This document shows positions 478 to 16,479 of a stretch of 64,000 bases of DNA, piece by piece. The notes beneath the pieces are model-generated. The model did no database searches. It was not told where the DNA came from and saw only the letters and a program-made list of their open reading frames with translations. The position numbers and the translations under genes were made by a program. Position 1 is the stretch's first letter, and the number at the start of each line of letters is the position of its first letter. Origin of the DNA: an uncultured delta proteobacterium (GTDB lineage: Bacteria; Desulfobacterota; RBG-13-43-22); contig CAWJJC010000020.1 in the NCBI GenBank assembly GCA_963843145.1, forward strand, positions 608,001 through 672,000, given 5' to 3'.

Positions 478-506
478 AAACTATCCGGACCGGCGCCACC
501 TCAATT

Positions 507-1016
507 TCAGGCGCCAGTCGTCGGTGAACCGTCATTGTGACGATAACTTCCTCCGGCTTGCTCTATTTCCTGAAGAACCCGTTCCAACATCTCGGCTACC
601 CGGCCTCGGATCGTCGGGGTCAGTTCGTCGGACCAAGGGGAATAATCCTCGGGCTCGATGCCCAACACCACCGTTTCGGGTCGGTTGCCCACCAATTCGC
701 AGCAGGCCAGGGTTTCCAGAAGGTCCGTTTGGTGAAGAGAATACTTAAAAGCCACACTCTTGCGGACTTCTTCGCCGGTCAGGCGATAAAACGTTCCCGG
801 AGACTGGCCGTTTAGTACGGCATCCACCACGATTAACAAATCCGAAGAGCTTATGGCGTCCATCAGTTTAATCCCCAAAGTCCCCCCGTCCATGAGGGAC
901 ACATTCGGAGAAAAAGAATAGTCGCTCTGGAGCCGCTCCACCACCCGCACGCCGACTCCCTCATCGCGCAGCAGAATATTCCCCACCCCTAATACCAGTA
1001 TTCGTTTCTCCGGCAT
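507..1016 (-). CDS. [NiFe] hydrogenase maturation endopeptidase (HyaD/HybD family)
   Basis: LVLGVGNILLRDEGVG motif, DGGT and the SLHQ metal ligand; lies directly downstream of the large subunit. Confidence 0.95.
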   Translation of the reverse strand: MPEKRILVLGVGNILLRDEGVGVRVVERLQSDYSFSPNVSLMDGGTLGIKLMDAISSSDLLIVVDAVLNGQSPGTFYRLTGEEVRKSVAFKYSLHQTDLLETLACCELVGNRPETVVLGIEPEDYSPWSDELTPTIRGRVAEMLERVLQEIEQAGGSYRHNDGSPTTGA

Positions 1017-1080
1017 TCAACTATCCTTAGAATCGCGTCTATTGAAAATTTCTTTGGAAAATCAGGGTCGGAACCAATCC

Positions 1081-1130
1081 TTCACCTCCGCCCTCTTCCT
1101 CCATCGAAGGAGGGAGAGGGCGGAGGTGAA
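1081..1130. terminator. Long GC-rich inverted repeat after the hydrogenase large-subunit gene
   Basis: TTCACCTCCGCCCTCTTCCTCC-atcgaa-GGAGGGAGAGGGCGGAGGTGAA, a near-perfect 22-bp stem next to the stop codon. Confidence 0.7.
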
Positions 1131-1133
1131 AGT

Positions 1134-2822
1134 CTAGGAAACTTTAAATTCGTACACTTCGTTGGTTTGAGGATCGATGATATGAACCCCACAGGCGATG
1201 CAGGGGTCGAAGGAATGGACCGTCCGCAATACTTCCACCGGGCGCTTGGGGTCCGCCACGGGGGTGCCGATCAAGGCCTCCTCCACCGGTCCCAGGCGAC
1301 CCAGGGCGCAGCGGGGTCCCAGATTCCAGGTTGAGGGAACAACCAACTGGAAATTTTCTATTTTTCCGTTCTTTACGGACATCCAGTGGCTCAGCGCTCC
1401 CCGGGGGGCCGTCACGAACCCGACACCCTCAGCATCTTTGGGCATCTTCCATTCCGTGTACAGCGTCGTGTCGCCCTTCTTAACATTGGCTTCCATCTGG
1501 TTTAACCAGGCTTCCGTCTTGCCGGCGATGACCGCGCATTCGATACCCCGAGCGGCAGTCCGGCCCAGGGTGGAAAACAGGGCTTCCGGCCCGACATTCA
1601 GATGTTTCAGGACAGTATCCACCAGTCCTTTGCATTCCGGTTGACCTTTGGCGTAAGCGACTAAAACCGTGGCCAAGGGCCCCGTTTCCATGGGTTTGTT
1701 ATGATAGCGGGGGGCCTTCATCCAGGAATAGCGGCTCTTATCGTTTAATTTGGTATATTTCGGCTTGGTTACGCCCTTAGAGGGTTTTCGGGCTTCCGTC
1801 CCCTCATACCAACTGAAGGCCACATGCTCCCGGATATCCGAAGGATCGAATTTCTGGACATTGGCCAGATCCCGTTTCATGATCGCCCCGGCCGGCAGCC
1901 AGCGGGTTTCCATATCGGTTTCGGTTTCCGGGAATTCCCCGAAGCTGAGAAAATTCGTACAGCCTCCGATGGCTCCCCAATTTTTATAAAATGAAGCCAC
2001 GGCCAGCAAGTCCGGAATGTAGACCTCATCGATGAACTGTTTGGTCTCCTTATAGAGGTCCCGGAATTCCTTGAGGCGTTCCGGGGTCAGGGCCTCATAA
2101 TTGGTGGCTCCACCCACTACGGTAAATTGGGTGTGGGGGTTCTTCCCCCCCATAACCGCCATCATGCGGGCGGCCTTGACCTGCAGCCGCAAGGCTTCCA
2201 GGTAATGGGCGGTAGCGATCAGGTTGACTTCCGGTGGCAGGACATAAGCCGGATGGCCGCCGAGGAAATAGGCGTTGGTAAAAATACCGAGCTGTCCATT
2301 GTCCACGAAGGCCTTTAACTTGGCCTGAACCGCCTGGAGGCCTTCGGCAGTGGTTTTGCGGTTGGGGGAAATATCGTTGGCCAATTTGGCGGCTTTGGAG
2401 GCGTCGGCCGTCAAGCCGCTGGTCACGTCCACCCAATCCAGCGCATGCAGGTGGTAAAAATGAACGATATGGTCGTGCATGAACTGGCTGGCTAATACCA
2501 AGTTACGCATCAATCGGGCGTTATCGGGGATCTTGACCCCCACGGCGTTGTCGACGCACCGGGTGGCGGCCAGGGCATGCACGTAGGTGCAGACCCCGCA
2601 GGCTCGCTGGGTAATATGCTGGGCGTCCCGTGGATCACGCCCTTTTAAAATAATTTCAAGGCCCCGGAAAAGCTGGGAACTGGACCAGGCATTGTGGACC
2701 TTTCCATTTTTCACCTCCACTTCGATCCGCAGGTGTCCTTCAATCCGGGTAATGGGGTCGATGACGATGGACCCGGAATATCCGCCCCCGACAGGGGCAG
2801 CGGGTGTTTTCTGTTCGGCCAT
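1134..2822 (-). CDS. Periplasmic [NiFe] hydrogenase large subunit (group 1, Desulfovibrio Hyn type)
   Basis: DPITRIEGHL; L1 motif QRACGVCTYVH; L2 motif SFDPCIACGVH followed by a cleavable C-terminal tail; Cys rather than Sec. Confidence 0.97.
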   Translation of the reverse strand: MAEQKTPAAPVGGGYSGSIVIDPITRIEGHLRIEVEVKNGKVHNAWSSSQLFRGLEIILKGRDPRDAQHITQRACGVCTYVHALAATRCVDNAVGVKIPDNARLMRNLVLASQFMHDHIVHFYHLHALDWVDVTSGLTADASKAAKLANDISPNRKTTAEGLQAVQAKLKAFVDNGQLGIFTNAYFLGGHPAYVLPPEVNLIATAHYLEALRLQVKAARMMAVMGGKNPHTQFTVVGGATNYEALTPERLKEFRDLYKETKQFIDEVYIPDLLAVASFYKNWGAIGGCTNFLSFGEFPETETDMETRWLPAGAIMKRDLANVQKFDPSDIREHVAFSWYEGTEARKPSKGVTKPKYTKLNDKSRYSWMKAPRYHNKPMETGPLATVLVAYAKGQPECKGLVDTVLKHLNVGPEALFSTLGRTAARGIECAVIAGKTEAWLNQMEANVKKGDTTLYTEWKMPKDAEGVGFVTAPRGALSHWMSVKNGKIENFQLVVPSTWNLGPRCALGRLGPVEEALIGTPVADPKRPVEVLRTVHSFDPCIACGVHIIDPQTNEVYEFKVS

Positions 2823-2874
2823 TATAATATCCTCCTTAGATACATTAATAAAATAAAGGGGCAGCTAGATCGAC

Positions 2875-3828
2875 TTAGCGTTGAACATAAAAGGGGCTCA
2901 TCTTGTCCCAGAAATCCGGTTCGCTGCAGCCGATGCAGGGATGTCCGGCCTGTACCGGCCAGTTGGTCTGGTTGAACTTAATTTTGGGGCAATTGTTGTA
3001 CGTGTCGGGTCCTTTACACCCCAATTGGTACAAGCACCAGCCTTTCTTGGCCTCTTCCGAACCGAAGGAGGGGGCATATTCCTGTTTGTCGAAGTGCGGC
3101 TGCCGTGGGCACTGGTCATGGACCGTTTCGCCGTAAAACATGACCGGACGGTTTAAAGCATCGAGCTTGGGCATCCCCTTGGTCAGTAAATGGACGACCG
3201 TCCCGACGAAATTATAGGGGTTGGGCGGACAGCCGGCGATATTGATGGCCTTGACGCCCAGCTTCTTCAGGGCGTCATTGACCCCTTTGGCCCCGGTAGG
3301 GTTGGGCTTGGCCGCCTGAACCCCGCCGAAGGTGGCGCAGGCCCCGATGGCGATCACCGCCTTGGCCTTGGGGGCGATTTCACTGCACATCTGAAACATG
3401 GTCTTTCCGGCGATTTTCCCGTAAAGGCCCCCATCCTTGGTGGGGATCGCTCCCTCAATGACGCAGATGTATCCTTCGGGAGATTTTATAGCCTTTTGCA
3501 GGGCGTCTTCGACCGCGTATCCGGCACCGGCCATTAAGGTTTCGTGGTAATCCAGGGAGATGGTGTCCAAAATCAATTCATCGATATAAGGATCGACGGT
3601 TCGCAGTACTGCTTCGGAGCAGCCGGTGCATTCGGCGTTGTGCAGGTAAACCACTGAAGGCCGCTTTTTGGCCGTCAAGGCAGCGGCGATCTCTTTGGCG
3701 AACGAGGCCTCCAAGCCCATCACCGCGGCGACTGTTCCGCAAAATTTTAAGAAATCCCTTCGTGAGATCCCCCGGTTTCGAAGTCTTTCTTCGGCATTTG
3801 GTTTGGCCAATCCAATTTCAAACTTCAT
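2875..3828 (-). CDS. [NiFe] hydrogenase small subunit with Tat signal
   Basis: SRRDFLKFC twin-arginine leader, [33 protein letters not shown]. Confidence 0.97.
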
Positions 3829-4294
3829 ACATTGCCTCCTTTTGCAACATTTTTTACCAGTGCGTAATCAAATCGGTGTGAATGGCCTAATTAAGAAGTA
3901 GAACCTTTTCCCCATTATCCCCCCCTCATTACAAATTCTTGCCTCCTTCCCTCCCTAATGGATTTTTGGGATAATATTACGTTTTTATATAGGTTTTCAA
4001 CTTTTTTATTTATTATGGAAAGTATATTTATAAAAAACGACTCCGATCCATAAAAATCAACCACTTGGACCCCTGCTTCGGCGTACGGGTAGCCGAAAGT
4101 GCCCATTGAAGGATCGGTCTGAAGCGACCTGCGGGTTACATCCCAACCGATGGCCAAAAAAACCGCCATGGGTCAAGGCCTCCCCAGAATTAGTCGCGGT
4201 ATATCTTAATGGAAAAAAAATAGAGGGAAACTATGTCTGAGTTTCCAGACTGAGGGTCCTCTTCCGGGGTACCGAGGCCGGTTCAGCAATATCT

Positions 4295-4813
4295 TTAGAT
4301 AGATTGATCGGGTTGGTCCCCATTTCTTACCAGGCCGCTGAAAATTTTACGGAGTGTCTTATCGTCTATCTGGTCCAGCAGGAAATCATCCAATTCATCT
4401 TCAGGGTCCTCGCCTGAAGGCTTCGCTTCCGGCTCTGCTGCCGACTCAGCCAATTGGACGGGCAGGGTAGTGCCGTTTTCCTTGGCTACCCAGTTGTGAC
4501 GGTGGCTGAAATGATCCAGATATTTCTGGCATTCATCGTGGGCTCCGATATAAGAGATAAACAGCGTTTCCCCCCGGCGGAAACAGATCACCCGAAAACC
4601 CTCGCCCAGGTCGTATTTGAGGCAACCCTCGATCCGTTTTTCCCCCCAGCCGGTCAGCTTCCAGACTTTTTTTAAGTCGGGGGGTCCATTTTGGGTCAAG
4701 GCCTCTACAAGTTCCTCAGCCTTTTGGGCGGCCGTTGCCCCTTTTTCGCCTCTTTTCCGCAGGGCTTCCAGCTCTTTCTCAAATCTTCTTTCCAGATGTA
4801 TAAAACGGATCAT
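4295..4813 (-). CDS. Hypothetical protein with a RelE/ParE-like N-terminal fold and acidic C-terminus
   Basis: Likely start MIRFIHLERRFEKEL at 4813. KYDLGEGFRVIC...YIGAHDE resembles the RelE-superfamily core. Inference only. Confidence 0.5.
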   Translation of the reverse strand: MIRFIHLERRFEKELEALRKRGEKGATAAQKAEELVEALTQNGPPDLKKVWKLTGWGEKRIEGCLKYDLGEGFRVICFRRGETLFISYIGAHDECQKYLDHFSHRHNWVAKENGTTLPVQLAESAAEPEAKPSGEDPEDELDDFLLDQIDDKTLRKIFSGLVRNGDQPDQSI

Positions 4814-5079
4814 TCTACTAACCCCCCATGGCCCGAAGCGAGCAAGTCGCGAAAGCATGGAAATAACAGATCGATTAAAGTCGTTGAAGAATGGCAGACA
4901 TCCGGACGAAGCGAAGCGGACCCGTAGTCCAGGGCTAATTCAAGCCCCACAAGCTCTGGATACCGGGAGATCGAGTTCGGTATCGACGCGCAAAAGACAA
5001 GGGCCAAAAACTGGTACTGGATTTTATCTGCATACTAAACGGTCATTTCCTACGTAGCACTTTCTGGTTTTGACTGCAT

Positions 5080-6232
5080 CTAAACCCGGACTACTTCCAG
5101 AAAGGCTTCCACCCGGGTTTTCAACTGTTCCACATCCCAGAAGGAGTAATCGGTTTCCAAATGCAAAAGGGGAATTGGCCCGTTCTTCTTCCAAAAATTC
5201 TTGAAGCGGGTAGGCCTCCACGCTGTAGGTAAGGCAGCAGCGCCAGGTGAGGTCCACCACGCCCTGAACTTTAAAATCCTTGATCAGTCTGGCGATGAGG
5301 TCAAATCGGCCGATATTGGGGGTCAGGCAAGAGCAGGGGGTCTGGAGGTAATGCCGGGCGATAGCCCGGTACGGATTTTCATCCGTTTCGTCGATCAGAC
5401 GATCGAAGCTTTTAATGCCGGTGCAATTTTCCTGGCAGACCACTATCCCACCGGATTCCTCGATCAGGCGGAGCACTTTCTCCGACCCCTTGCCCACCGG
5501 GCAGCCGGTCAGAAGAATTCGGGGGGCCTCCGACGGAACGACGGAAATTCCCTGGTTCTTCAACAGAGTGAGTTCTGCCAACAATTGATCCAGATGTTCG
5601 CCGTAGGATACCAGGTCCACGGGAAACCCCTTGGATTCCATAACCGGCAACAGGTCCAGGCCGGTGATGGGAACGGACTCCTCGGCGCATTGGTAGACGA
5701 TTTCTTTTAGCCGCCGGCGGATTCGGTTGTTGATTTTGATCTGGTGGCGCAGGGCTTCCGGAACGATCTTGTTTCCCGTAGCCTCTTCCAGATATTCCTT
5801 TAAGCCTGTACATTTCTTCCAGCCAGTAAAGAGGGGCCACCGGTCGGCGGGAGTATAGGGAAGCTGCAACAGGAAGAAGGGCTTGATCCTTCCGAGCAGT
5901 TCAAACATCTTTTTCTTGCCGTCACAGGTGGTTTCCCCGATGAGAATATCCGAGGCGGCGAAATAGGGACAGGTGTCCGTCACGGCGTAGCCGTAGCTGG
6001 ACTTGATCAGGGGGCAGAGATTGATCGGCAGGGTTTTCTCCGCCTCGGCGATCGGGGTCTCTTGTTTGCCGCAAAGCCCCACCGGTATGGCCCCGGCGGC
6101 CCAGACCAACTCCGCCGGGGCAAAGGTGCAATAAATGCCCCCCACCTTCCTGCCGGACTTCCGGGCCTCATCCAACAGGAGAAGACTTTGTTCGCCGAAA
6201 CGTTGGAAATATTCCAAGGAGGAGTATTTCAT
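5080..6232 (-). CDS. Double-cubane-cluster reductase / 2-hydroxyacyl-CoA dehydratase family (YjiM-like), frameshifted in this assembly
   Basis: [49 protein letters not shown]. The conserved C-terminus [26 protein letters not shown] lies in another frame ending at TAG 5080-5082 (shift near 5180). There is also a short compensated shift near 5800-5845. Confidence 0.88.
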
Positions 6233-7003
6233 CGGGACTTTTCTTTTCCATAAAGGGCGGCTCCCAAAGCCCCGACTAAATCCGGTTTTTCAGGCACGAT
6301 CAGCGGCGTTTTAATTTCCTCTTCGATCAGCTTCCGCATGCAGGGGTTATGGGCCACCCCCCCGGCAAACATCAGGGGCGATTCCTTCCCCACCCGTCCC
6401 AGCATGGAAAGGGTTCGCTGGACGATGGCCAGGTGCAACCCCAGGGCGATGTTTTCCGGCCGCTCGCCCCGGGCCACCAGCGAGGTGGCTTCGCTTTCGG
6501 CGAAGACGGTGCACATGCTGCTGATTTTGATTCTCCGGTCGGCCCGTAAGGCGTAGTCCCCAAAAGATTCGATAGGAATCTGCAGGGCCGCGGCCATGAA
6601 TTCCAGGAACTTCCCCGTGCCGGCGGCGCAGCGGTCGTTCATCTCAAATTTAGCCACTTTCCCCTGATCGGAGAGGGAGATAACCTTGGTATCCTGCCCA
6701 CCGATATCCAAGATGCTCCGAGTTTCCGGGATAAAGGTAGTGGGCCCCGAGGGCATAAGCCTGAATCTCCGTAATGGTCGTGGTCGGGAAATCGCCGTTC
6801 AGGGAATCGGCCAGAAGCTTGCGGCCGTATCCGGTGGCCACGATCCGATCAAGGGGGATATCCTCTATGATTTTCCGACATTGGCCCAGGGGATCAAAGG
6901 TCGTCGACACCTTGGCCTCATGGATCCTCTGATCCCCTTGAAGGACCACCAGCTCGATGGACCGGGAACCGATGTCGATCCCGGCAATTATATTCTTATC
7001 CAT
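6229..7003 (-). CDS. ATP-dependent acyl-CoA dehydratase activase / DCCP reductase (HgdC/YjiL-like), split by a frameshift near 6745
   Basis: GIDIGSRS and ATGYGR in ORF 6650-7003; LDIGGQDTK, MNDRCAAGTG, SSMCTVFAESE, GGVA and GALGAAL in ORF 6229-6756. Confidence 0.92.
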
Positions 7004-8255
7004 TTAGAGCGAATAGCCACGATGGCGGCAACGATCAAACCCAAGATAGCCAGTCGAATTACTAGACCTGACTTTTTCGCTTTTTCACCTGCCCAAAAGG
7101 ACCTTTCGCGAGTCGTGGCTGCTTTGACCTCCTTTTGGAAACGTTTTTTTAGTCGGATCCGGTTGAGGTAGGTGATGGGAGCGCCTGAAACCTTTGCCTT
7201 GCCTGCCAGGGCGGCTTCCGGTTCATAAAGGAGATCGAGCACATGGCTCGTTGGGGTTCTCCTGTTGAGGTAGCCGGCGCAGCCGGCGCAACAGGTGATA
7301 ATCCTTTTTTGTTCCGCTTCTGTTTTTCGGAGCTCTCCCCATTTCTCTGAAAACGAGGCCGCCACGCGTCCCACGGCCCCCCCTTCTCCACAGCAAAGGG
7401 TTGTTTTGCCGCTGTGAGTCATCTCTTCAATCTCGAGACCTTCCCGGCGCACCAACTCCCGTAACGCCGCATGCACCTTTTCCTCGGAGCGAACCGCGCA
7501 CGGATCATGGATCCTCACTACGCCGCCTAGTTTCCGGCCCGAGTGGGTGCCCCGTCATCGGCCAGGATTTCGTATACCGTCTTGACCTGCAATTCGCCGC
7601 CGTAATTCAAGAAGATCTTGTGACAGTTTGGACAGGCCACTAGGACCCGCCGCACACCCTTTCCAAGAAGATAGGATTTCAGCTCATTGAACATGGACTG
7701 AAAGAATTTCTCCCGACCCAGGTCGTGGGAGATCTTGGTGCAGCAGTCGAGCACAATTCCCAAAGAGGGCATCTGCCTCTTCAGATCCTGATAGAGGGCG
7801 AAGGTCTTATCCGGCCGCGTGCCGGTCAGGGTGCAGCCGGGGAAAAAGACCGTGTCACAGCCTTCCGGCAGCCCATAAAAGCTGTATTTCTTTGAGGTCC
7901 CCCTTCTTTCGTAGGCCAGAAGTCCGCCATGCTCGGCAAAAGATCCGTTGCCTCGGTCCACGGTTTCACACCGCATTTGCAGAAACATGTCCGCGGGCGT
8001 TGCCCCGACAGGGCAGACGGCATGACAGAGCTGGCAAAGGCTGCATTCAAAAGGCAGCCCCTGGTAGCCCTGATCCGATGGGTCATAGGCATCCGCGATC
8101 TCTTTGGGCTTCCCATACTTACGCAGGAAGGCACACTCCTTTTGGCAAAGCTGGCAGTTGATGCAAGTCTCGGAGACCGCTCTCAGCGTATCGCGAAGTG
8201 ACTCCCGGACTTCAAGCCTCGAAACATCCCTGGGCTGAAGTTTCTCTTTTGCCAT
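6988..8255 (-). CDS. Fe-S oxidoreductase (2x[4Fe-4S] plus CCG domains, GlpC/HdrD-like), frameshifted near 7535, with a C-terminal TM stub
   Basis: CINCQLCQKEC, CSLCQLCHAVCP, FFPGC, DCC and ACPNC, then HDPC, LCCGEGG and TCCAGC in the next frame. Ends in a single hydrophobic helix overlapping the activase start. Confidence 0.85.
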
Positions 8256-8400
8256 TTACGTTGACTTCCTCCAAAAAAACCTCAACTCCGAAAAAGCAGA
8301 ATTTGCTTAGAGCGTAATCGCCGAATCCGCCCCCACCTGATCCAAAGCTTTATAGCGATCACGAAAGCAGGACAACGCAGCGGCTGCGACCAGCGTATTT

Positions 8401-8910
8401 TTAATTCCTGACCATTTCTACAAAGGCCTCCACCCGGGTCTTGAGCTGCTCCACGTCCTCCATACTGTAATCGGTTTCGATGGCCAGCATGGGGATTTGG
8501 GCTTTTTGCAGGGCCTTATCCACCTTGAAGGACTCGATGGTGTAGGGCTGGCAAAAATTAAGGGCGCAGGTGTTGCGGGGCAGGATCTTCTCGGCCGATT
8601 CGGTGCCGGCTTCGGCCCCGGCGCAGAGGCCTACCTGAACGGCATTGGCGGCCAGGACGATTTCTTCCGGCACGAAGACACAAAAGGTACCGATGATTTT
8701 TTTCCCTTGGGCCTTAGCGTCCTGGAGTTCCTTGATCCGCAGGCCATGGACTTCCGAAAGGACAAAATCCAGGTACTCCATACCCTTGAGCCGGCCGGAC
8801 TGGCTCATATAGATATCGCCGTAAAATTTCCCCAGGACCTCCAGCAGACCCGCGTGAGCCTCCAGGTCCAAATTCAATTTTTCCCACATTTCATCATGAG
8901 GTGTTGCCAT
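8401..8910 (-). pseudogene. Second double-cubane-cluster protein gene with a large in-frame internal deletion
   Basis: The long-type DCCP N-terminus (LNLDLEAH...VHGLRIKEL...GTFCVFVPEE...GLCAG...LPRNTCAL) is joined directly to the family C-terminus (NFCQPY...[20 protein letters not shown]). 169 aa, versus roughly 380-420 aa expected. Confidence 0.8.
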
Positions 8911-8986
8911 ATCGTCTCCTTTGAAAATTTCATTACTGATAACCCCCGACCTTGTCAGGGGCTCCGAAAGCTAGACTTACGGTGGT

Positions 8987-9196
8987 CTAGGGCTTAACCG
9001 GCAGGACGTGAACCGCTTTGATGATCAGTTGCACCTCATCTCCGATCTTTAAGTCGAGGCTTTCAACGGATTCGGTGGTTAAGACCGACGCCATTTCAGA
9101 CGGCTTGATGACCTCATATTTCACCAGAGCCATGACGTCCCCCTTTTTGATGGATTTAACCTTAGCCGTAATCTTGTTTCGCGCTCCGTATTCCAT
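8987..9196 (-). CDS. Stand-alone TOBE/Mop (molbindin-like) protein
   Basis: 69 aa; GARNKITAKV...SVLTTESVESLDLKIGDEV...IKA is the Mop/TOBE signature. Confidence 0.92.
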   Translation of the reverse strand: MEYGARNKITAKVKSIKKGDVMALVKYEVIKPSEMASVLTTESVESLDLKIGDEVQLIIKAVHVLPVKP

Positions 9197-9208
9197 GTGG
9201 TTCCCCTT

Positions 9209-9898
9209 TCATTTTAGGATTTTTTGAGACGGATTTTCCCCTAAACCATAAATCAGGATGAGAGCCCCCTGGCGAGGGAGTTTCTCGGCTTTTCCCTTAA
9301 AGTGGGAATTGGGTGATATCATCCTTTTAAAGGAACTTATGGCCGGGTAGGCAGCGTTGCTGGTGATCCCGATGGGGCAGCTTTCCAGGCAGGTGATGCA
9401 GCCGGTCTGCTCTTCCACCGCCCGCTGCCGGTTGCCGCCGAAGCGAATCCGGAAGCCCTTCCCGGAGGAATCTTCCAGGATATCATTTAGACCCAGGATT
9501 TTGTTTTGTCCCGGAATAACCACGGTTACCGTTAGGTCATCCCCCTGAACCGTTTCTCCGGAACTTCGGAGATTCAGGTTGTTTCCCGGCCTGGCGCCGA
9601 TCTGAAGCAGGGCATCGTGAAATTCCTGAGGCGTGCAGAACGCTTGGAGGATGGCTTTGTCTCTTAATTTCCCGCCCCGAAAAACGACCCCCCAGTGGGG
9701 GTTGGATTGGTTGAGGGATTTAGGATTAACCTCGGCATAGATTAGGACCCGCTTGTTTATCGAATCAACCTGGAGGGGTTCAACGCGGGAGGGGAGAGGG
9801 GACCTGTACCCGTCCGAGGCCGGGACGGGTCCCGTCCAGGAGAGGATCAGGGTTGCGACCACCCCGACCGTAAGGGCCGTCAAGCGATGCCAAGCCAT
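9209..9898 (-). CDS. YdjY-domain exported protein
   Basis: Signal peptide, HWGVV...G, GAxPGNN, FGGN and GCITCLESCPIGITSN, as in E. coli YdjY-like proteins. Confidence 0.8.
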   Translation of the reverse strand: MAWHRLTALTVGVVATLILSWTGPVPASDGYRSPLPSRVEPLQVDSINKRVLIYAEVNPKSLNQSNPHWGVVFRGGKLRDKAILQAFCTPQEFHDALLQIGARPGNNLNLRSSGETVQGDDLTVTVVIPGQNKILGLNDILEDSSGKGFRIRFGGNRQRAVEEQTGCITCLESCPIGITSNAAYPAISSFKRMISPNSHFKGKAEKLPRQGALILIYGLGENPSQKILK

Positions 9899-10008
9899 GA
9901 CCGGAGGAGCCTCTTGCGCGGCAGAAGGATGGTTAGGTTGTCAGTTTTTTGCGACGACATATTTATTTATAGTGATACGAATTTAAGCTTTCCAAGCCCT
10001 TTGCTCAT

Positions 10009-10041
10009 AGACCGACTCGGTCTTGGAGACTGAGTCGGTCT
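10009..10041. terminator. Stem-loop after the rhodanese gene
   Basis: AGACCGACTCGGTC-ttgga-GACTGAGTCGGTCT. Confidence 0.55.
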
Positions 10042-10069
10042 CAACCTGGCGGACAAGAATACCGGCGTG

Positions 10070-10582
10070 TTATTTCACCTTGTCGACCGGATATCCCGCT
10101 TCATCCCAGGCCTTAATGCCGCCGGGGTAGCGATAAACGTTTTTATAGCCCAGCTTGACGGCCCACATGGCCCCATTGTGACTGCGGGTGCACTTGGTGA
10201 AGCCGCAGTAGATGACGATCAGCTTATCCTTGTCCGGGCCGAGAAGCTTTTCCAAGGCCGCTTTTTTCTGATCATCCAGGCCGGTCATTTCAGGGATGGG
10301 AAATTCCATTTGCACCGCCCCCGGAACGTGCTGCTTTTTAAAGCTGTCCTCGAAGGGCATGGTATCGACAATGGTCATGTTTTTCTTCTGGTCTATCCAA
10401 CTCTTCAGTTCCTCCGTGGAGACGATTTTGTAGCCGCCACGGGCCACTTCCTTGGCAAAGGTGACGGCGATCTTCTCCGTATCCATTTCCTTGGATCCCC
10501 AGGCGGCCAGAACCGGACTGGATAGTAGTAAAATTGAAACCAAGCCTATGAGACCCATCGTTATACCGCTTACTTTCTTCAT
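10070..10582 (-). CDS. Exported single-domain rhodanese (sulfurtransferase)
   Basis: Signal peptide, IVDTMP, HVPGA, active-site loop YCGFTKCTRS, YPGGIKAW. Confidence 0.92.
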   Translation of the reverse strand: MKKVSGITMGLIGLVSILLLSSPVLAAWGSKEMDTEKIAVTFAKEVARGGYKIVSTEELKSWIDQKKNMTIVDTMPFEDSFKKQHVPGAVQMEFPIPEMTGLDDQKKAALEKLLGPDKDKLIVIYCGFTKCTRSHNGAMWAVKLGYKNVYRYPGGIKAWDEAGYPVDKVK

Positions 10583-10598
10583 CTCTACTTTTTCCTCC

Positions 10599-11111
10599 TT
10601 ATAGGGTTAGTTTGATTTTTGCCCACAAGGGCAAGTTCTGGTTGAAGTCCTTCCGGACCCAACGGGACAGATAGAGGTAAATCGCCCCGCCGATTAGAAT
10701 CAGGTCCCGATAAAAAGCCTGCCAGAGGCCGGCCTGGGCCTGGACTTCCTCCGGGGAAAAACAGCCGCAATCGATGTGCAGGTCCCTAAGCAGACCGTAC
10801 CAAAGGACCGTCGCAAAAAAGAAGAGCAGGCCGAAAATCAGGCTCAAGCTCCCGCGAATTGCGAAGATCAGGCCCGCGGCACCCAGGATTTCCAAAAGGG
10901 GCAACCCGATGGCCAGGACCGGTAACAAAAAATCCGGGGCCAGGTCATATTGGGCAATGGACCGGGCGAAAGCCTTGGGGTCCATCAGTTTGACCGTCCC
11001 GGCATAGAGGAAAACCAGGGCCAATCCCCAGCGGACTATCCGGGAGGGCCACCGAGAAAAAATCAGGCCCGCTGCCTCCTGAATCCCCTTTCGATTTCCC
11101 CCCCCGCTCAT
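10599..11111 (-). CDS. MauE/DoxX-family redox-associated membrane protein
   Basis: RWGLALVFLYAGTVKLMDP...LPLLE...IDCGCF...RDLIL, with four TM helices. Confidence 0.9.
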   Translation of the reverse strand: MSGGGNRKGIQEAAGLIFSRWPSRIVRWGLALVFLYAGTVKLMDPKAFARSIAQYDLAPDFLLPVLAIGLPLLEILGAAGLIFAIRGSLSLIFGLLFFFATVLWYGLLRDLHIDCGCFSPEEVQAQAGLWQAFYRDLILIGGAIYLYLSRWVRKDFNQNLPLWAKIKLTL

Positions 11112-11145
11112 CGGGAGGATTCTTGATCAAGTTAACTAATATGTC

Positions 11146-11195
11146 AAATAGGTAATATTGATGATTGCTTTGATTGGCATAGGTAGAAATAATGG
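11146..11195. promoter_or_regulatory. Possible tandem LysR-type boxes upstream of the DoxX-rhodanese cluster
   Basis: ATAGGTAATATTGAT and ATAGGTAGAAATAAT, each fitting T-N11-A and sharing ATAGGTA, in an AT-rich patch. Confidence 0.3.
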
Positions 11196-11321
11196 ATAGG
11201 GAGCTTTTGCAGGGTCCCCCCCTAAAAGAAAAAATTTAGTTCTTCAACGGGGCTGAGGAGTTAAGAAAGGGCTGTTTGCCCTTACCGGTTGGAGGCTCGA
11301 TTATGTCTGGGGCAGCGAAGT

Positions 11322-11825
11322 CTACCTTAGACTATTTGATTTTTTATTCAAAGGGAGAATCTCGATTCGTGTAAAGGATGTCCAAGTGCCGCCTTCGTCA
11401 CCCGCCACCTTATATCCACTGACTTTTATCCGCAGGCCCTTTCTCAAATAATCCTGATCGCTGTAGTCGATTTTTAATAGAATGAAAGGGGGTCTAGCTA
11501 TGAGGTCCTGACTCTGGTAAGCCGACGAATCCAGGTATCTGGTCAGGGTGACCGCCGCCTCCGGCGACACGCCCTCGAAGTCGACCAAACGGATCAGGAA
11601 ATGCGGGGAAACCACCCGATCCCTTGCGGCGGATCCGGACATACGAGGAACGCCCTTTACCGTTTTTTCCGGAACCCAACGCACCTCGCTGATGGTCCCG
11701 GTAATATCCGCCGGGCCAAAAGGTCGTATGGGCGCAGAAAAAGCCGACAGCCCCCCAAAGAGGGCTAAACCCCCTATCAGCAAAAGTATGGTCGTTTTAT
11801 TCATAAACGGACCATTATTGTCCAA
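11322..11825 (-). CDS. Hypothetical exported protein
   Basis: N-terminal hydrophobic signal and an OB-fold-like beta pattern; no family recognised. Confidence 0.65.
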   Translation of the reverse strand: MDNNGPFMNKTTILLLIGGLALFGGLSAFSAPIRPFGPADITGTISEVRWVPEKTVKGVPRMSGSAARDRVVSPHFLIRLVDFEGVSPEAAVTLTRYLDSSAYQSQDLIARPPFILLKIDYSDQDYLRKGLRIKVSGYKVAGDEGGTWTSFTRIEILPLNKKSNSLR

Positions 11826-11853
11826 AATGATCCGGGCATAGAAAACTAGCGCT

Positions 11854-12603
11854 TCAATTCTTTTTCTTCAATTGATCGGCCACGGCTTGGGCCGCCTTTT
11901 TTACCGCCTCCTCGTCCCCCAGGTAATAATTGCGGATCGGGCGAAGATCTTGATCCAATTCATAGACCAGGGGGATGCCGGTGGGAATATTGAGTCCCAC
12001 GATCTCCTCCTCCTTAATATTATCCAGGTATTTCACCAGCGCCCGGAGGCTATTGCCGTGGGCGGTGACCAGCACCCGTTTCCCGGCCTTGACGGACGGC
12101 CCAATCGTACCCTGCCAATAGGGCAGAAACCGCGCCACCGTATCCTTGAGGCATTCGGTCAGCGGGAGTTCCTCCGGACTCAGATCGGCGTAGCGCGGGT
12201 CTTTCCCCGGATAACGGGGATCATCCGCCGTCAAGGCCGGGGGACGGGTGTCGTAACTCCGCCGCCAGATTTTGACCTGGTCCATCCCGAATTTATCAGC
12301 AGTCTCGGCCTTGTTCAAACCCTGGAGGGCGCCGTAGTGCCGTTCGTTCAATCGCCAGTGCCGGATGACGGGTATCCACATCAGGTCCATCTCATCCATC
12401 ACGATCCACAGGGTTCGGATGGCTCGCTTTAAGACCGAAGTGTAGGCCAGGTCGAAGGTGTACCCCTGTTCTTTGAGAATCCGCCCGCCCTCTTGGGCCT
12501 CCTGGACGCCTTTTTCCGAAAGGTCCACATCCGTCCAGCCGGTAAAAAGATTCTCTTTGTTCCAGACGCTCTCTCCATGACGCAGCAACACTACCTTATA
12601 CAT
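11854..12603 (-). CDS. gpmA: 2,3-bisphosphoglycerate-dependent phosphoglycerate mutase
   Basis: [29 protein letters not shown]. Confidence 0.97.
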
Positions 12604-13879
12604 AATCGGTCCTCCTTTTTTTATACTGATGGGATTTAATAGTAAACTTGGTTTCAGCCTTCTCCGGATCTTTATCCGGCAAACGGACGGAATAGTCGGC
12701 CCGGTAAAGCTGCCTTAGAATTTCTTTCCAATGGGACAGGCCGCGGGTCTGAAGGACAAACTCCACCTCGGTGGTCTGGAGGGGCAGCGTTGAGAAGGTC
12801 CTTTGATGATGAACCTCAATGATGTTGGCCCCCCATTCCCCCAGCAAACGGGTTACCTCCGACAAGGCCCCGGGAATATCCCGAATCGCTATGAGAAGGC
12901 GAACCAACCGGCCTGATCGGACCAGTCCTCGCTGAATAATGGCCGAAAGAATCTGAAGATCGATATTCCCGCCGGAAAGTACGATCCCGACCTTCTTTCC
13001 CTTGAAGCGCCGGTTTTTTTGAAGCAAGGGGGCCAATCCCGCTGCCCCGGCCCCTTCGACTACGGTTTTTTCCACTTCCAATAACAGCAGCACCGCTTTC
13101 TCCAGTTCCGGCTCATCCGCCAGGATGATTTCATTCACCAGCCGCCGGATGACGGGCAGGGTCAGGCGGCCCGGTTGTCTGACCGCAATTCCTTCGGCAA
13201 TGGTGGGCGGGTGGCATTCGACGGAAAGGGATTTCAGGGCCTGGGCCATGGAGGGGAACCGGACGGACTCAACACCGATTAGTTCTATCGAAGGGCGAAG
13301 CTTTTTGGCCGCAATAGCCAGGCCGGCGAGGAGACCTCCGCCGCCGACAGGAGCGATCAGCACTTCAAGATCCGGAAAAACGCGCAACATCTCCAGGGCA
13401 ATGGTACCTTGACCGGCGATTACCTTTTCATCATCATAGGGATGGATAAAACAAAGTCCCCTTTCCTCGGCCAGCTTTTTGGCCAAAAGACCGGCTTCAT
13501 CCACCCCGGAACCTTCCAGGATCACTTCAGCGCCAAAAGAAGCGGCCTGATCCACTTTGATGTTGGGGGTATTCCGCGGCATAACGATCAGGGCCGGGAT
13601 GCCCAGGCGTCGGGCATGGTAGGCTACGGCCAAACCGTGATTTCCGGCGGACATGGCCGCCACACCCTGCTTTCGCTCTTCCGGCGACAAAGAAAGCAGT
13701 TTTACCAGGGCTCCCCGTTCTTTGAAAGAGGCGGTAAATTGAAAAATTTCAAATTTTAAAAAAACCTCACAGTCGGTGATCTGGGAAAGGGTCGAGGAAG
13801 GGACACAGGGGGTTTCAATAATCTGACCCTTGATCAGCTCGGCAGCCCGGCGAATGGAGTCAAAAGATACCGACGGCAT
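12596..13879 (-). CDS. ilvA: Threonine ammonia-lyase with C-terminal ACT domain
   Basis: SFKERGA PLP-lysine motif, [23 protein letters not shown] domain. Confidence 0.9.
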
Positions 13880-13891
13880 TTCTTCTTATTT

Positions 13892-14164
13892 TTAGAGATA
13901 GGCAATGGTTTGAAAATTGGGAATTTCAAACCGGCGCCGGCACCGGGGGTTGGGGCAGGTGAGGAAATCGTCCACCCGCACCAGGTAATCCCGCGACTTG
14001 GCGAACTTGGCCCGATCAAGGTCGCTTGCGCCGGGCGGCAGTTTCTTCTTCTTGCTGCGTTTGAGCCAGCGAACCGGGAACTCGGCTTCCTGGCGGCACT
14101 TCGGGCAGGTATAAGTGGTTTTCTTGGTCTCAGGGGTCTCGTCGTAAAAGTTTCGCTCGTCCAT
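13892..14164 (-). CDS. Small basic zinc-ribbon hypothetical protein
   Basis: CPKC and CPNPRC pairs flank a Lys/Arg-rich insert; co-oriented with ilvA. Confidence 0.7.
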   Translation of the reverse strand: MDERNFYDETPETKKTTYTCPKCRQEAEFPVRWLKRSKKKKLPPGASDLDRAKFAKSRDYLVRVDDFLTCPNPRCRRRFEIPNFQTIAYL

Positions 14165-14233
14165 GGTTTCAGATTATCCTTTAATAGTCAGATTCTTTCA
14201 ACGTTAATTTGGATCACTGCCCAAAAATATATC

Positions 14234-14398
14234 TGACGGACTCGCAAAAAGTCCGGCAGCAGCCCGAGCGCGATTGAGCGCCGGGCTGGGGTGAGTGTGG
14301 AACCATTTGAATTCACCTCAAATGGCTGGGGAGTCACGCCTAAGGCGTGATTCCCCGCCGAGCAGAAAGTCGTTTTTAGACTTTTTGCGAGGTCATCA
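14234..14398. mobile_element. MITE family A, copy 1 (TIR consensus TGATGACCTCGCAAAAAGTC)
   Basis: Ends TGACGGACTCGCAAAAAGTC and GACTTTTTGCGAGGTCATCA; the body, including the hairpin CCATTTGAATTCACCTCAAATGG, is highly similar to 47040-47196. Confidence 0.85.
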
Positions 14399-14402
14399 AA
14401 TT

Positions 14403-14640
14403 GGACGCGACGCCCTGTTGGGTGCGTCCTCCTCATATTTGGTAAGGCCTCCCGGGTCTTTTGAAGAGGGTTTCCCAAAGGCCATCCGGGCTCCGATTCG
14501 GGTCTAAGACCGCAACTTCATTTAAAAGCAGGCCCAAAACCGGAGTCCTTTAACTCCTTTCCAAGAGACCCGGGAGGCCACGAAAGCTTGGGTCCGAGGT
14601 GATTTACTTGAGGCCGAAAGTCGCCCCCGGTCCCGGTGTA
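14403..14640 (+). ncRNA. Candidate structured non-coding RNA (unassigned)
   Basis: Hairpin at 14403-14429, then a 134-nt rod closed by a perfect 14-bp stem (14446-14459/14566-14579) with internal helices containing + strand G-U pairs. Confidence 0.35.
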
Positions 14641-14728
14641 ATAACTTGACAAGCTCTCGATTAATGATTAAAAAACAGGCACCCCTAAAAAAAGGGAGAA
14701 GGGAAGGTTTTTTCAAAAAACTATCATC

Positions 14729-15712
14729 ATGATTGAAGTTGAACACTTGACCAAATATTACGGTCTGGTTCCCGCAATATCGGACCTGACCTTTCAGGTC
14801 GGTCAGGGAGAAGTGGTAGGTTTTTTAGGTCCCAACGGGGCCGGCAAGACCACGACCATGAAAATCCTGACCTGCTTTCTCCCCCCGACCTCGGGGAAGG
14901 CCCGCATCGACGGTTTGGACCTCTCCCAGGATTCCCTGGGGGTTAGGCAAAAAATCGGCTATTTGCCGGAAAATAACCCGCTCTACAGTGAAATGACCGT
15001 AGAGGGATTTCTTTCCTTCGCGGCTCAGGCCAAAGGCATCCCCAGCCGAAATGCAAAATCCGCCGCGGCCAAGGTGGCTGAAGACTGCGGCCTGGAGTCG
15101 GTCCGCGGAAGGATTATCGGCCACCTCTCCAAGGGATTTCGGCAGCGGGTGGGATTGGCCCAGGCCCTCTTGAATGACCCGCCGGTGCTGATTCTGGACG
15201 AACCGACCATCGGGCTGGACCCCGCCCAGGTCGTTGAGATCCGGCAGTTGATCAAGTCCCTGGGCCGGGAACGGACCATCCTGCTCAGTTCTCATATTCT
15301 CCCCGAGATCAGCCAGCTTTGCCAGAAAGTGATCATCCTGAATCAGGGGCGGATAGTGGCCACGGATACGGTCTCGAGCCTCACCGCCCAGCTCCAAAGC
15401 TCCCGGAAGATCAGGTTGACCATTCGAGGCCCGCAAGAGGCCATCCTGACCACCCTGGCCGAAATAAACGGGATTCTGCGAATCGAACCCCAGGACGATG
15501 AAGGGGCCTACGAACTCGAAATGCGGAAAGAACTGGACGTCCGGGCGGATGTCAGCCGGGCGGTCGTGCAGCAGGGTTGGGATCTGCTGGAAATGCGCAG
15601 CCTGGATTTAAGTCTGGAGGAGATCTTTGTCCAGTTGGTGACGGAAGAACCAACCGGAGAGGAACCGAAAGGAAAAGAACCGGAAATGGAAAAGGCCGGA
15701 GGAGAATCATGA
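14729..15712 (+). CDS. ABC-2 exporter ATP-binding protein (GldA-like)
   Basis: GPNGAGKTT, LSKGFRQR, LILDEPT, SSH. Confidence 0.95.
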   Translation: MIEVEHLTKYYGLVPAISDLTFQVGQGEVVGFLGPNGAGKTTTMKILTCFLPPTSGKARIDGLDLSQDSLGVRQKIGYLPENNPLYSEMTVEGFLSFAAQAKGIPSRNAKSAAAKVAEDCGLESVRGRIIGHLSKGFRQRVGLAQALLNDPPVLILDEPTIGLDPAQVVEIRQLIKSLGRERTILLSSHILPEISQLCQKVIILNQGRIVATDTVSSLTAQLQSSRKIRLTIRGPQEAILTTLAEINGILRIEPQDDEGAYELEMRKELDVRADVSRAVVQQGWDLLEMRSLDLSLEEIFVQLVTEEPTGEEPKGKEPEMEKAGGES

Positions 15713-16479
15713 AAGGATTCGGGGCCGTCTTTAAAAAAGAAATCTACACCTTTTTCGCTTCCCCTATTTTTTATGTGGTCGGCACCATCTTTTTGACCAT
15801 CGCCGGGTATTTTTTTTACACCGACGTGGCCTATTACAGCCTGATCAGTTTTCAGGCGGCCCAGAACGCCTATATGGGGGGTCAGGTCAACTTGAATGAG
15901 ATGGTCATTAAACCCTTAATGGACGACATCAGTGTCATCCTGCTCCTGATTGTTCCCCTGTTGACCATGCGCCTGATCGCGGAGGAGAAAAAAAACGGGA
16001 CCATGGAATTGCTGTTAACCTATCCACTCCGGGATCTGGCGATTGTACTGGGAAAATATGCCGCTACCCTTCTGGTCCTGGTCATCCTCCTGGCGGTAAC
16101 CCTGATCTATGTCCTGCTGCTTTCCTGGGTGGGAGAGTTCGAGTGGGGGGTGGTCTGGACCGGATACGGCGGATTGGTCCTCATGACCGCCGGTTTTGTC
16201 GCCCTGGGTCTCTTTTTCTCAGCCCTGACCCAGAATCAAATCATCGCGGCCGTCCTGGGGTTCGGGTCCCTGCTCATGTTCTGGATGATCGGCTGGGCCG
16301 GGTCTCTTTCCGGGCCGGTGGCGGGCAAGGTGGTCAATTATCTATCTATTCTGGAACACCTGGACTCTTTTACCAAGGGGGTCATCGATACCCGGGATAT
16401 CGGTTATTACCTGACCTTTTCGGCCTTTTTTATTTTTTTAACGCTTCGCTTCCTGGATTCCCGGAAAATCCGGGGCTAA
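15709..16479 (+). CDS. ABC-2 permease (GldF-like)
   Basis: Start MKGFGAVFKKE overlaps the ATPase stop; TMRLIAEEKKNGTMELLLTYP motif; six TM helices. Confidence 0.92.
   Translation: MKGFGAVFKKEIYTFFASPIFYVVGTIFLTIAGYFFYTDVAYYSLISFQAAQNAYMGGQVNLNEMVIKPLMDDISVILLLIVPLLTMRLIAEEKKNGTMELLLTYPLRDLAIVLGKYAATLLVLVILLAVTLIYVLLLSWVGEFEWGVVWTGYGGLVLMTAGFVALGLFFSALTQNQIIAAVLGFGSLLMFWMIGWAGSLSGPVAGKVVNYLSILEHLDSFTKGVIDTRDIGYYLTFSAFFIFLTLRFLDSRKIRG

Follow-up and report, generated by a model that had tools for sequence, protein, structure and literature searches.

The window analysed here is a stretch of 64,000 nucleotides from an uncultured delta proteobacterium (GenBank assembly GCA_963843145.1, contig CAWJJC010000020.1, positions 608,001 to 672,000), and our subject is a gene cluster at window positions 4295-11111, where every long open reading frame (ORF) lies on the minus strand. 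This region is a real cluster, with the size of a transcription unit. Hidden Markov model (HMM) scans identify, in transcription order, a MauE/DoxX-family membrane protein, a rhodanese, a YdjY-family protein, a stand-alone TOBE protein, the remnant of a first double-cubane reductase (DCCP#1), an Fe-S/CCG reductase, an activase and a second double-cubane reductase (DCCP#2). A preliminary description of the locus had already given these eight genes their identities and order, which the HMMs support, but it overlooked the damage to the cytoplasmic half: the four upstream genes are intact, and this assembly has lesions in each of the other four, DCCP#1, the reductase (which relatives carry as a fusion to a VTT/DedA membrane domain), the activase and DCCP#2. 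The window cluster is a local, partly broken copy of a widespread and uncharacterised envelope module.

The MauE/DoxX-family protein (170 aa; 10599-11111) matches PF07291 at 95.8 bits and carries the motif DCGCF. It is followed by a single-domain rhodanese (10070-10582; PF00581, 68.8 bits) with the loop CGFTKCTRS, a CxxxxC arrangement that is retained by both rhodanese subtypes of these clusters, and by a YdjY-family protein of 229 aa (9209-9898; NF040466, 107.3 bits against a cut-off of 50), whose motif TGCITCLESC contains three Cys (C167-x2-C170-x3-C174) that are invariant in an alignment of 15 homologues, as is H68. The CGC, CGFTKCTRS and CxxCxxxC motifs reported earlier for these three proteins are thus all present in the sequence. 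Both the rhodanese and YdjY begin with a hydrophobic, signal-like segment, and their export is read from the N-terminal sequence only. The fourth gene (8987-9196) encodes a stand-alone TOBE/Mop protein of 69 aa (PF03459, 41.4 bits; TIGR00638, 53 bits against a cut-off of 55).

A structure model of YdjY (pLDDT 81.5) retrieved nothing from the PDB at E <= 0.001 with Foldseek (best E value 0.26), and the best result of a wide VIA-align search, DUF371 with a Z of 5.3 over 122 residues (rmsd 3.5), is inside the tool's stated noise range. Four YdjY homologues (P0085, P0094, P0110 and P0111) have twin-arginine-like signal starts, such as TRRSFFK, which would fit export as a folded, cofactor-bearing protein; the YdjY of the window has no RR. 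Rhodanese genes are split in several other loci. Selenocysteine (Sec) was considered for those of L043, L064 and L069 and rejected, because reading TGA as U gave proteins with two rhodanese domains and Cys; in L024, L068 and L085 the cause of the split is a frameshift.

The lesions of the downstream half were defined against the same-genus genome G002 (locus L020) and the relatives G003, G005 and G019, by three-frame translation and at the DNA level; in the comparison genomes the activase (258 aa), DCCP#2 (383 aa) and the Fe-S/CCG protein (a 624-aa frame) are single ORFs. The DCCP#1 remnant (169 aa; 8401-8910) had been recognised as a fragment from the start, and is one: it scores 141 bits on NF040772 and covers model positions 9-67 and 321-372 only, the G002 orthologue scoring 501.9 bits. 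An in-frame internal deletion of 762 bp, with its junction at 8564-8569 and 6 bp of microhomology, has removed four of the seven cluster Cys and left three. The Fe-S/CCG reductase, previously taken for a single gene, is two ORFs here, cut by a 2-nt insertion near 7552: an N-terminal part (7527-8255) with two [4Fe-4S] motifs and the first CCG domain, and a C-terminal part (6988-7518) with the second CCG domain and one transmembrane helix. A further deletion at 7008/7009, of about 600 bp (601, 602 and 606 bp relative to three loci), takes out exactly the C-terminal VTT/DedA domain, which is kept in G002 (PF09335, 96.3 bits) and G003. Owing to this deletion there is no VTT match anywhere in the window, and for the same reason the constant partner of YdjY, the Fe-S/CCG-VTT fusion, had escaped notice.

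The activase, a BcrAD/BadFG ATPase of the HgdC type, had likewise been described as one gene and is in two pieces, an N-terminal one identified in the HMM scans (6650-7003) and a C-terminal one (6229-6756; TIGR00241, 181.7 bits against a cut-off of 125.4). The frameshift is one extra C/G pair near 6728 (CCC where CC is expected, in tatcccggaa), and the gene is a single 258-aa ORF in G002 and G003. DCCP#2 occupies the ORF at 5024-6232, with its true end at 5080. It passes NF040772 (401.4 bits against a cut-off of 350; model positions 5-343 of 372) and keeps all seven cluster Cys (C35, C54, C73, C103, C270, C300/302 and C332/333), but it does not have the intact full-length frame once attributed to it: owing to a 1-nt insertion near 5188, the last ~30 residues, the C-terminal segment with ETDY, are encoded in another frame, and at about 5800-5842 the frame is lost and then restored. 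A literal seven-Cys spacing pattern from the preprint on these proteins (see below) matched none of four DCCP sequences, being off by 1-2 residues, and alignment to the solved chain was used. Both HGD-D genes are of the NF040772 type, and the cluster has no alpha-type partner. The alternative that these proteins are ordinary 2-hydroxyacyl-CoA dehydratases was rejected, as the beta-subunit model NF052456 gives 58.3 bits against a cut-off of 700, the DCCPs of G002 likewise fall far short of the dehydratase cut-off, and both DCCP#2 and the DCCPs of G002 keep the seven Cys.

Among 20 fused Fe-S/CCG-VTT proteins, the invariant Cys are C39/42/45/49, C79/82/85/89, C149/179/180/216/219 and C260/295/296/330/333; these fit two [4Fe-4S] sites and two five-Cys CCG domains, in agreement with the Pfam Fer4 and CCG matches. 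The VTT/DedA domain has an invariant Cys of its own, in the motif MLPACIA (position 572 of the G002 protein), in all 20. A complex prediction for the VTT domain (405-624) with mature YdjY (33-229) gave a score of 0.00 with controls absent, and counts neither way.

We lean towards the view that these lesions are real decay in this organism. Quite possibly, the breaks are instead assembly or sequencing errors and the cluster of the living organism is intact, which would alter only the 'decayed' part of our interpretation. An alignment of the whole window to syntenic G002 DNA, which covers 54,681 window bases when blocks of 300 nt or longer are counted and contains 54 indels, shows frame breaks outside the cluster too: two are clear (37307 and 41419) and two possible (29260 and 42702), in the roughly 48.8 kb that align there. 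Elsewhere in the genome ModA and YedF look split, short homopolymers contain or adjoin the small indels, and G002 has breaks of its own, in GpmA and in YdjY; together these findings indicate that the assemblies are error-prone. The region at about 36273-39267 consists of two overlapping ORFs, and 40522-41773 of two ORFs where G002 has one of 417 aa. The YdjY gene of G002 (locus L020, 9800-10480) carries four small indels and two stops and the reductase half is intact there, so that each of the two genomes shows a different half of the cluster broken.

Contigs from public sequencing runs bear on the same alternative. Runs X1 and X2 each have a near-identical contig that parts from the window sequence right at the DCCP#1 junction. 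That of X2 (1 mismatch in 108 nt) continues past 8566 into undeleted DCCP#1 sequence, and that of X1 (0 mismatches in 73 nt) ceases to match at the junction. A related X5 contig lacks 2 nt at 7543, and X2 and X3 contigs have compensating indels at 5797 and 5839. No run contig was usable over 5188 and none was decisive over 6728; all seven matching runs carry at most 0.10 of the sampled words, and four gave only short contigs of relatives. These contigs show that close strains have intact forms, which does not tell what this organism carries. Against error as the explanation, the three uncompensated frame breaks fall within 3.2 kb, compared with two to four in 48.8 kb elsewhere (Poisson P about 0.0004-0.003); clean deletions of 762 bp and ~600 bp, one with 6 bp of microhomology and the other removing exactly the VTT domain, are atypical of base-calling error; and all lesions lie in the reductase half, the four upstream genes being intact. 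Whether damaged or badly assembled, the locus is unsuited as an expression template and, with that part broken here, a poor place to study the DCCPs, the activase and the Fe-S protein; G002 has these four downstream genes intact.

The same gene set recurs in the four related genomes (G002, G003, G005 and G019), and conservation of the arrangement was followed in 66 YdjY loci collected by a pattern and tblastn scan with the 15-sequence YdjY alignment. All derive from metagenome-assembled genomes (MAGs) as judged by record title, 28 being of Nitrospirota type, 32 of Desulfobacterota type and six other, and many lie on short contigs. ORFs of at least 45 aa were labelled by phmmer (E <= 1e-5) with the window and G002 proteins; as an independent check, all ORFs within 7 kb of YdjY were clustered and the recurrent clusters annotated. 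An Fe-S/CCG or VTT protein is present in 55/66 loci, and a VTT/DedA domain stands beside YdjY in 47, as it does in G002 and G003. Rhodanese is found in 31 loci, MauE in 21 (20 of them with rhodanese), TOBE in 13, DCCP in nine and activase in nine. When only the 32 loci flanked by 5 kb or more on each side are considered, 28 have Fe-S/CCG, 16 rhodanese, 11 MauE, seven TOBE, five DCCP, four activase and 11 ArsS. The Fe-S/CCG-VTT fusion itself is represented by 38 listed ORFs of 500-657 aa, one per locus and a few of them incomplete.

A VTT/DedA domain fused to an Fe-S module of the heterodisulfide-reductase type nearly always accompanies YdjY; these two proteins are the conserved core, and their arrangement is beyond chance. 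The module consists of an exported-looking YdjY and a predicted cytoplasmic HdrD-like reductase (two [4Fe-4S] and two CCG domains) fused to VTT/DedA, often joined by an exported-looking CxxxxC rhodanese with MauE/DoxX and sometimes by TOBE. The preliminary description of a conserved set that spans the envelope, with signal-like N-termini and Cys motifs outside, membrane proteins, and a cytoplasmic Fe-S reductase, holds up, and the co-localisation on which it depended is conserved in the four relatives and, for the core, in the 55 loci. Its placing of DCCP and activase at the centre does not: one or the other occurs in only 11/66 loci, in eight of them co-directional within about 6 kb. They are an optional but recurrent accessory. 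About 0.14 of the 66 loci would be expected to contain a DCCP by chance, and all eight neighbour DCCPs that were tested pass the NF040772 cut-off (443-506 bits); outside those eight are the DCCPs of L021 (broken), L050 (cut by the contig end) and L025 (the G002 locus, with the 501.9-bit DCCP#1).

The recurrent context of these loci is made up of selenium-utilisation and ArsS/ArsM genes, not of Mo/W genes. Recurrent neighbours include the GT2-type family TIGR04283 (26/66 loci; 210.2 bits), an ArsM-ArsS fusion or separate ArsS (19/66; fusion 333.6/300.6 bits), YedF (16/66; 206.6 bits), TIGR04282 (14/66; 182.9 bits), ArsM (11/66), SelD (9/66; 376 bits), a selenium-associated LysR regulator (LysR_Se; 6/66; 311 bits), SelB (4/66; 368 bits) and the AhpD-like TIGR04169 (4/66). 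At least one ArsS-pathway marker is present in 33/66 loci and at least one selenium marker in 27/66; 19 loci have both and 41 have either. 'PstB' neighbours in 14 loci were dropped as generic ABC-ATPase matches. Three co-directional arrays illustrate the interleaving: YedF-MauE-Rhod-TOBE-Rhod2-YdjY-TIGR04283-FeS/CCG-VTT-TIGR04282-ArsS-ArsM (L064), DCCP-activase-TOBE-...-YedF-Rhod-YdjY-TIGR04283-ArsM-ArsS-FeS/CCG-VTT-TIGR04282 (L050) and LysR_Se-DCCP-activase-YdjY-Rhod2-SelD-...-YedF-FeS/CCG-VTT (L043). Both L043 and L052 have selenium markers and a DCCP with no ArsS marker. Of the broad S/Se/Mo-W substrate class proposed earlier, the selenium part is matched by this context, but the recurrent genes are not Mo/W genes.

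Past a 187-aa hypothetical gene at the end of the cluster, the same strand of this genome carries hynS, hynL and hybD, and then genes for an NTP transferase, an AhpD-like TIGR04169 protein and ArsS. The ArsS sub-cluster begins with the NTP transferase (MobA/MocA-like, 226 aa; window 1-477, minus strand), which extends beyond the window start. The AhpD-like gene (194.8 bits) shares this strand and falls just outside the window, before position 1, and ArsS (TIGR04167, 374.1 bits against a cut-off of 300; G000:C20:606364-607263, locus L103 14373-15368), also on the strand of the cluster, lies about 0.7-1.6 kb before the window start and about 4 kb beyond the 187-aa gene, with the hydrogenase genes between. 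ArsS has one in-frame TGA and is probably a selenoprotein. ArsM and the two glycosyltransferase-like genes are not adjacent to ArsS in this genome, and the remaining genes of the pathway are scattered, with TIGR04283 and TIGR04282 on contig C28, ArsM-like genes on C14 and C6, SelD on C27 and YedF on C23.

Convergent with ArsS are a PadR-like regulator, an apparently split modA, modB and modC (locus L103 11428-14333; G000:C20:603428-606333), and upstream in the same locus are a TonB-dependent receptor, a BtuF/BtuC/ATPase-type transporter and TonB. The ModC-like ORF matches only the first 226 of 353 model positions and seems to lack a TOBE domain; the cluster has a free TOBE gene. On C28 (locus L104; G000:C28:768108-771843), the neighbours of TIGR04283 and TIGR04282 are NifS, NifU and a small protein that weakly matches the FtrB double-selenoprotein family, and the TIGR04282 gene of this genome looks shortened (137 aa; model positions 87-189).

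Co-occurrence was also assessed at the level of genomes, in a phylum sample of 151 genomes with completeness of at least 85, in which YdjY, ArsS and DCCP are above cut-off in 7, 51 and 50 genomes, respectively. ArsS is present in 6/7 YdjY-positive genomes and 45/144 others (one-sided Fisher 0.006, uncorrected for relatedness), and DCCP in 5/7 and 45/144 (one-sided Fisher 0.04, likewise uncorrected). One genome (G046) has a YdjY-DedA-DCCP-activase-DCCP-DCCP array; in another (G099), which has no YdjY, genes for ArsS, an AhpD-like protein, TIGR04283, TIGR04282 and DedA are divergent from DCCP-YedF-MauE-rhodanese.

We propose that the module relays selenium or arsenic across the envelope by means of thiols and Fe-S sites, and that DCCP, where it occurs, serves it as an ATP-driven reductase; to this reading we assign a probability of roughly 45%. 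For the cargo, selenium is best supported, arsenic comes second, and sulfur or Mo/W is a distant third. Four points, all described below, place selenium above arsenic: the E. coli controls, which match YdjY, DCCP and SelD but not ArsS, a DedA protein linked to selenite uptake, the paired-Sec rhodanese TsoB, and the prevalence of DCCP in SelD-containing assemblies. A chalcogen or metalloid would be captured on the periplasmic cysteines of rhodanese and YdjY, most likely selenium as a thiol-bound selenotrisulfide or perselenide and, as second choice, As(III), and MauE/DoxX would maintain the redox state that these cysteines need. The VTT domain would move the species across the membrane, and the CCG iron-sulfur site on the cytoplasmic face would release it by reduction and hand it to YedF/SelD and/or ArsM/ArsS. 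Where DCCP and its ATPase are present, they may add an ATP-driven reduction step at very low potential.

Several points weigh against this proposal. The mechanism is inference throughout, and the module may be non-functional in this very organism, since its reductase half is broken. That YdjY binds the species is a guess made from its three invariant Cys, as no solved fold could be recognised in it, and the relay leaves unexplained why many loci have a GT2-type glycosyltransferase between YdjY and the VTT fusion. Neither a selenium nor an ArsS marker is present in the available sequence of 25/66 loci, many of which are 20 kb long, and because ArsS and ArsM are often selenoproteins, the selenium genes may sit nearby for that reason alone. 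At genome level ArsS and DCCP are not linked, occurring together in 16 genomes of the phylum sample where 16.9 would be expected. Nor do the 66 loci count as independent observations: five belong to close relatives of the window, two MAGs supply two and three of them, and, all having been found with two YdjY peptide patterns, they sample only this YdjY subfamily.

A bolder form of the proposal, in which YdjY, the Fe-S/CCG-VTT protein, the CxxxxC rhodanese and MauE/DoxX constitute a previously unrecognised trans-envelope machine for the uptake and reduction of selenium (possibly arsenic), the same as that of the E. coli ydjXYZ-ynjA-E genes, with DCCP and its ATPase as an optional terminal reductase that supplies SelD with selenide from a precursor of very low potential (elemental or thiol-bound selenium), is in our estimation unlikely. 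Its consequences would be considerable. Double-cubane reductases carry out nitrogenase-like, ATP-driven reductions, and we know of no natural substrate for them; YdjY and the DedA proteins YdjX and YdjZ are, to our knowledge, orphans even in E. coli. If the bolder form is true, DCCP gains a physiological substrate and several E. coli orphan genes gain a function. As shown above, DCCP and activase plug into the YdjY/VTT module repeatedly, in two phyla, and what had been a vague 'S/Se/Mo' guess becomes a set of concrete hypotheses for E. coli and for cultured Geobacter and Syntrophus relatives, with the Fe-S/CCG-VTT protein named as a new domain fusion.

The likeliest competitor of the relay is that the module is an accessory of the ArsS/ArsM organoarsenical (arsenosugar) pathway, for which we see a small chance. 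YdjY and rhodanese would then bind As(III) or thioarsenicals, sites of three cysteines being the classical ligands of As(III); trivalent (methyl)arsenicals would be regenerated for ArsM and ArsS by the CCG reductase and, in loci that have it, DCCP; and the VTT domain would move arsenic species or arsenolipid precursors. The ArsS-pathway markers of half the loci, often interleaved with the module as in L064 and L050, fit such a role, as do the enrichment of ArsS in YdjY-positive genomes and the position of ArsS and the AhpD-like gene just downstream of the window cluster. However, E. coli has a YdjY/DedA/AhpD-like/rhodanese locus and no ArsS match: in the E. coli controls YdjY, DCCP (YjiM) and SelD match and ArsS does not, which argues against a purely arsenic role (the SelD control matched four genomes including E. 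coli, and two of the four, which are not individually indicated, pass the cut-off). ArsS is, moreover, seven times commoner than YdjY in the phylum sample and so does not need the module, no ars resistance genes are found among the recurrent neighbours, and L043 and L052 combine selenium markers and DCCP with no ArsS marker.

Trafficking of sulfur (persulfide or thiosulfate) or of thiomolybdate or tungstate, for the biosynthesis of molybdenum or tungsten cofactors (Moco/Wco) or of Fe-S clusters, is improbable. The rhodanese, MauE/DoxX and TOBE genes would suit it, as would the annotation of E. coli YnjE as a molybdopterin synthase sulfurtransferase, the MobA/MocA-like NTP transferase at window 1-477 and the modABC genes beside ArsS. 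TOBE, which was the sole basis of the thiometallate idea in the preliminary description, is nevertheless present in only 13/66 loci; the families that recur as neighbours include no gene of Moco biosynthesis, the named ones being linked to selenium and arsenic, and an Rfam search of window 1-16000 (E <= 0.1) found neither a Moco nor any other riboswitch. A lipid-linked glycan route, in which TIGR04283 loads a sugar on polyprenyl phosphate, VTT/DedA flips it (DedA proteins being lipid-carrier flippases), exported YdjY uses it and the redox domains are regulatory, could account for the fact that in many of its 26 loci TIGR04283 has YdjY immediately on one side and the VTT fusion on the other, for its weaker matches to polyprenyl-phosphate and phosphoglycerate glycosyltransferases and for nearby phosphoglycerate mutases (apgM in 9/66 loci; GpmA beside the cluster here), but it is equally improbable, since it leaves two full CCG domains, rhodanese, MauE, YedF, SelD and DCCP unexplained and the cluster of this genome has no glycosyltransferase, TIGR04283 and TIGR04282 being on another contig.

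Around the cluster, a sigma-70-like promoter match (TTGACA-17-AAGAAT; 11119-11147, minus strand) lies just upstream of the MauE start; it is a consensus match only, and not significant alone, because three promoter-like sites were found where shuffled sequences give 5.1. At the other end, a conserved hypothetical protein of 187 aa (4295-4858, minus strand) travels with the cluster, in the four relatives and in 7/66 loci. It has no Pfam family, and in the Atlas it falls in clusters without names, with a weak ParE/RelE-like lead of 0.87 (under the 0.9 mark). A terminator-like hairpin with a T run, identified by pattern match only, follows the gene at 4226-4246 on the minus strand.

Between the cluster and the ArsS genes, window 507-3828 holds genes for a periplasmic [NiFe] hydrogenase: hynS (with a twin-arginine signal), hynL and hybD. 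HynS is in the same place in G002, G003 and G005 and adjoins the Fe-S/CCG-VTT gene in a Syntrophobacter MAG (L034); these genes could be an insertion or a functional electron source. A palindromic hairpin at 1074-1137, between hybD and hynL, matches a miRNA family on both strands (34.7 bits; gathering threshold 76), the sole match of the Rfam search; as a miRNA this sub-threshold match is surely spurious, and an intercistronic stem-loop may be what it reflects. On the other side, the phosphoglycerate mutase gene gpmA (11854-12603) adjoins the cluster here and in G002, and the cofactor-independent apgM occurs in L036, L042, L044, L046, L049, L055, L062, L079 and L085. Together with the GpgS-like matches of TIGR04283 and the CofC-like nature of TIGR04282, the mutases hint at phosphoglycerate-derived chemistry.

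The module, and its link to ArsS and selenium genes, appear to be undescribed. No report tying YdjY or a VTT-CCG fusion to selenium or ArsS genes was found in the literature searched, which excluded supplementary tables; nor did that literature contain a C-terminal CCG-VTT/DedA fusion or join arsenosugar to DedA, and, among the matches listed, no work on ydjY function was found by title or abstract. PMC5322559 has no occurrence of DedA, SNARE, DoxX or heterodisulfide. A DedA protein has been linked to selenite uptake, in 2005 work as cited in PMC8679861.

Several known systems resemble parts of the module. ArsS and ArsM have a biochemical role in cyanobacterial arsenosugar synthesis, and the 'arsenosugar' family names used here are those of NCBIfam. 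Genes of this pathway are interleaved with the module in 33/66 loci and ArsS is near the window cluster, whereas none of the window's eight genes belongs to TIGR04167, TIGR04169, TIGR04282 or TIGR04283. The Fe-S/CCG protein is organised like the HdrD/DsrK/GlpC-type reductases, with two ferredoxin-type [4Fe-4S] motifs followed by two five-cysteine CCG domains, but its matches to the named families are weak (DsrK 14.9-17.9 bits, TmcB 18-44 bits). The rhodanese recalls TsoB (NF045694), listed in a table row as a paired-Sec UxxxxU rhodanese (PMC13188914); within the literature searched, TsoA/TsoB occur only in that 2026 review table. Both have a loop with two redox residues four apart (UxxxxU and CGFTKC) and would be coupled to a membrane thiol-disulfide electron carrier. 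In contrast to TsoB, the window protein has Cys rather than Sec and a separate MauE/DoxX in place of a fused DsbD-like domain; TsoB is its best NCBIfam match, but with 106.5 bits against a cut-off of 805, in the rhodanese part only, membership was rejected.

The DCCPs compare most directly with that of Carboxydothermus hydrogenoformans (PDB 6ENO and 7YYL), on which DCCP#1 and DCCP#2 of G002 score 487 and 267 bits, with the seven Cys aligned and an HgdC-type activase adjacent. Compared with that protein, DCCP#1 of the window lacks four of the seven Cys, DCCP#2 has a frameshifted C-terminus and lacks an N-terminal extension of ~45 residues, and the activase is split. The solved protein has no known physiological substrate according to the preprint of Haft and Gwadz, who built NF040772 and report there that 955/970 strong DCCP matches fall in SelD-containing assemblies, and that DCCP and activase neighbour the selenocysteine-assisted organometallic (SAO) locus in 21/52 species. 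A link of DCCP to selenium or organometallic compounds by gene context is therefore already in print, ahead of the preliminary description, which saw in the context a clue to the DCCP substrate. As presented in the preprint, the SAO locus resembles the loci studied here in having DCCP and activase as variable neighbours of a transport or handling locus in selenium-using anaerobes, with the reduction of an imported metal(loid) or selenium compound as the role proposed. It differs in that the window cluster proteins carry Cys, not Sec, and in its gene families: no Sao ABC transporter, MerB-like lyase, efflux pump or Sao name is among the annotated recurrent neighbours, no search with Sao HMMs having been made.

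The closest parallel in gene content is in E. coli K-12, whose RefSeq array reads ydjX (DedA), ydjY, ydjZ (DedA), ynjA (AhpD-like), ynjBCD (ABC transporter) and ynjE (rhodanese). The parallel had been drawn in part already and holds; as judged from gene families, the module is homologous in content to this array, with YdjY beside DedA/VTT, an AhpD-like protein and a rhodanese, and NF040466 matches both YdjYs. In a transcriptome table for the E. coli LysR-type regulator YgfI/DhfA, yjiL, ynjE and ydjY show changes of about -5.2 to -5.3, along with anaerobic respiration genes (PMC9068703), which hints that yjiL (the DCCP activase), ynjE and ydjY are co-regulated. The window itself has no DedA/VTT domain beside YdjY, and has a rhodanese and an AhpD-like gene in the neighbourhood, the latter about 8 kb away beside ArsS, a gene that E. 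coli lacks. No YnjBCD-type ABC transporter was seen here, the partners being MauE/DoxX, TOBE and DCCP/activase; and where E. coli has two free DedA proteins, the relatives of the window have the VTT domain fused to a reductase with two [4Fe-4S] and two CCG domains.

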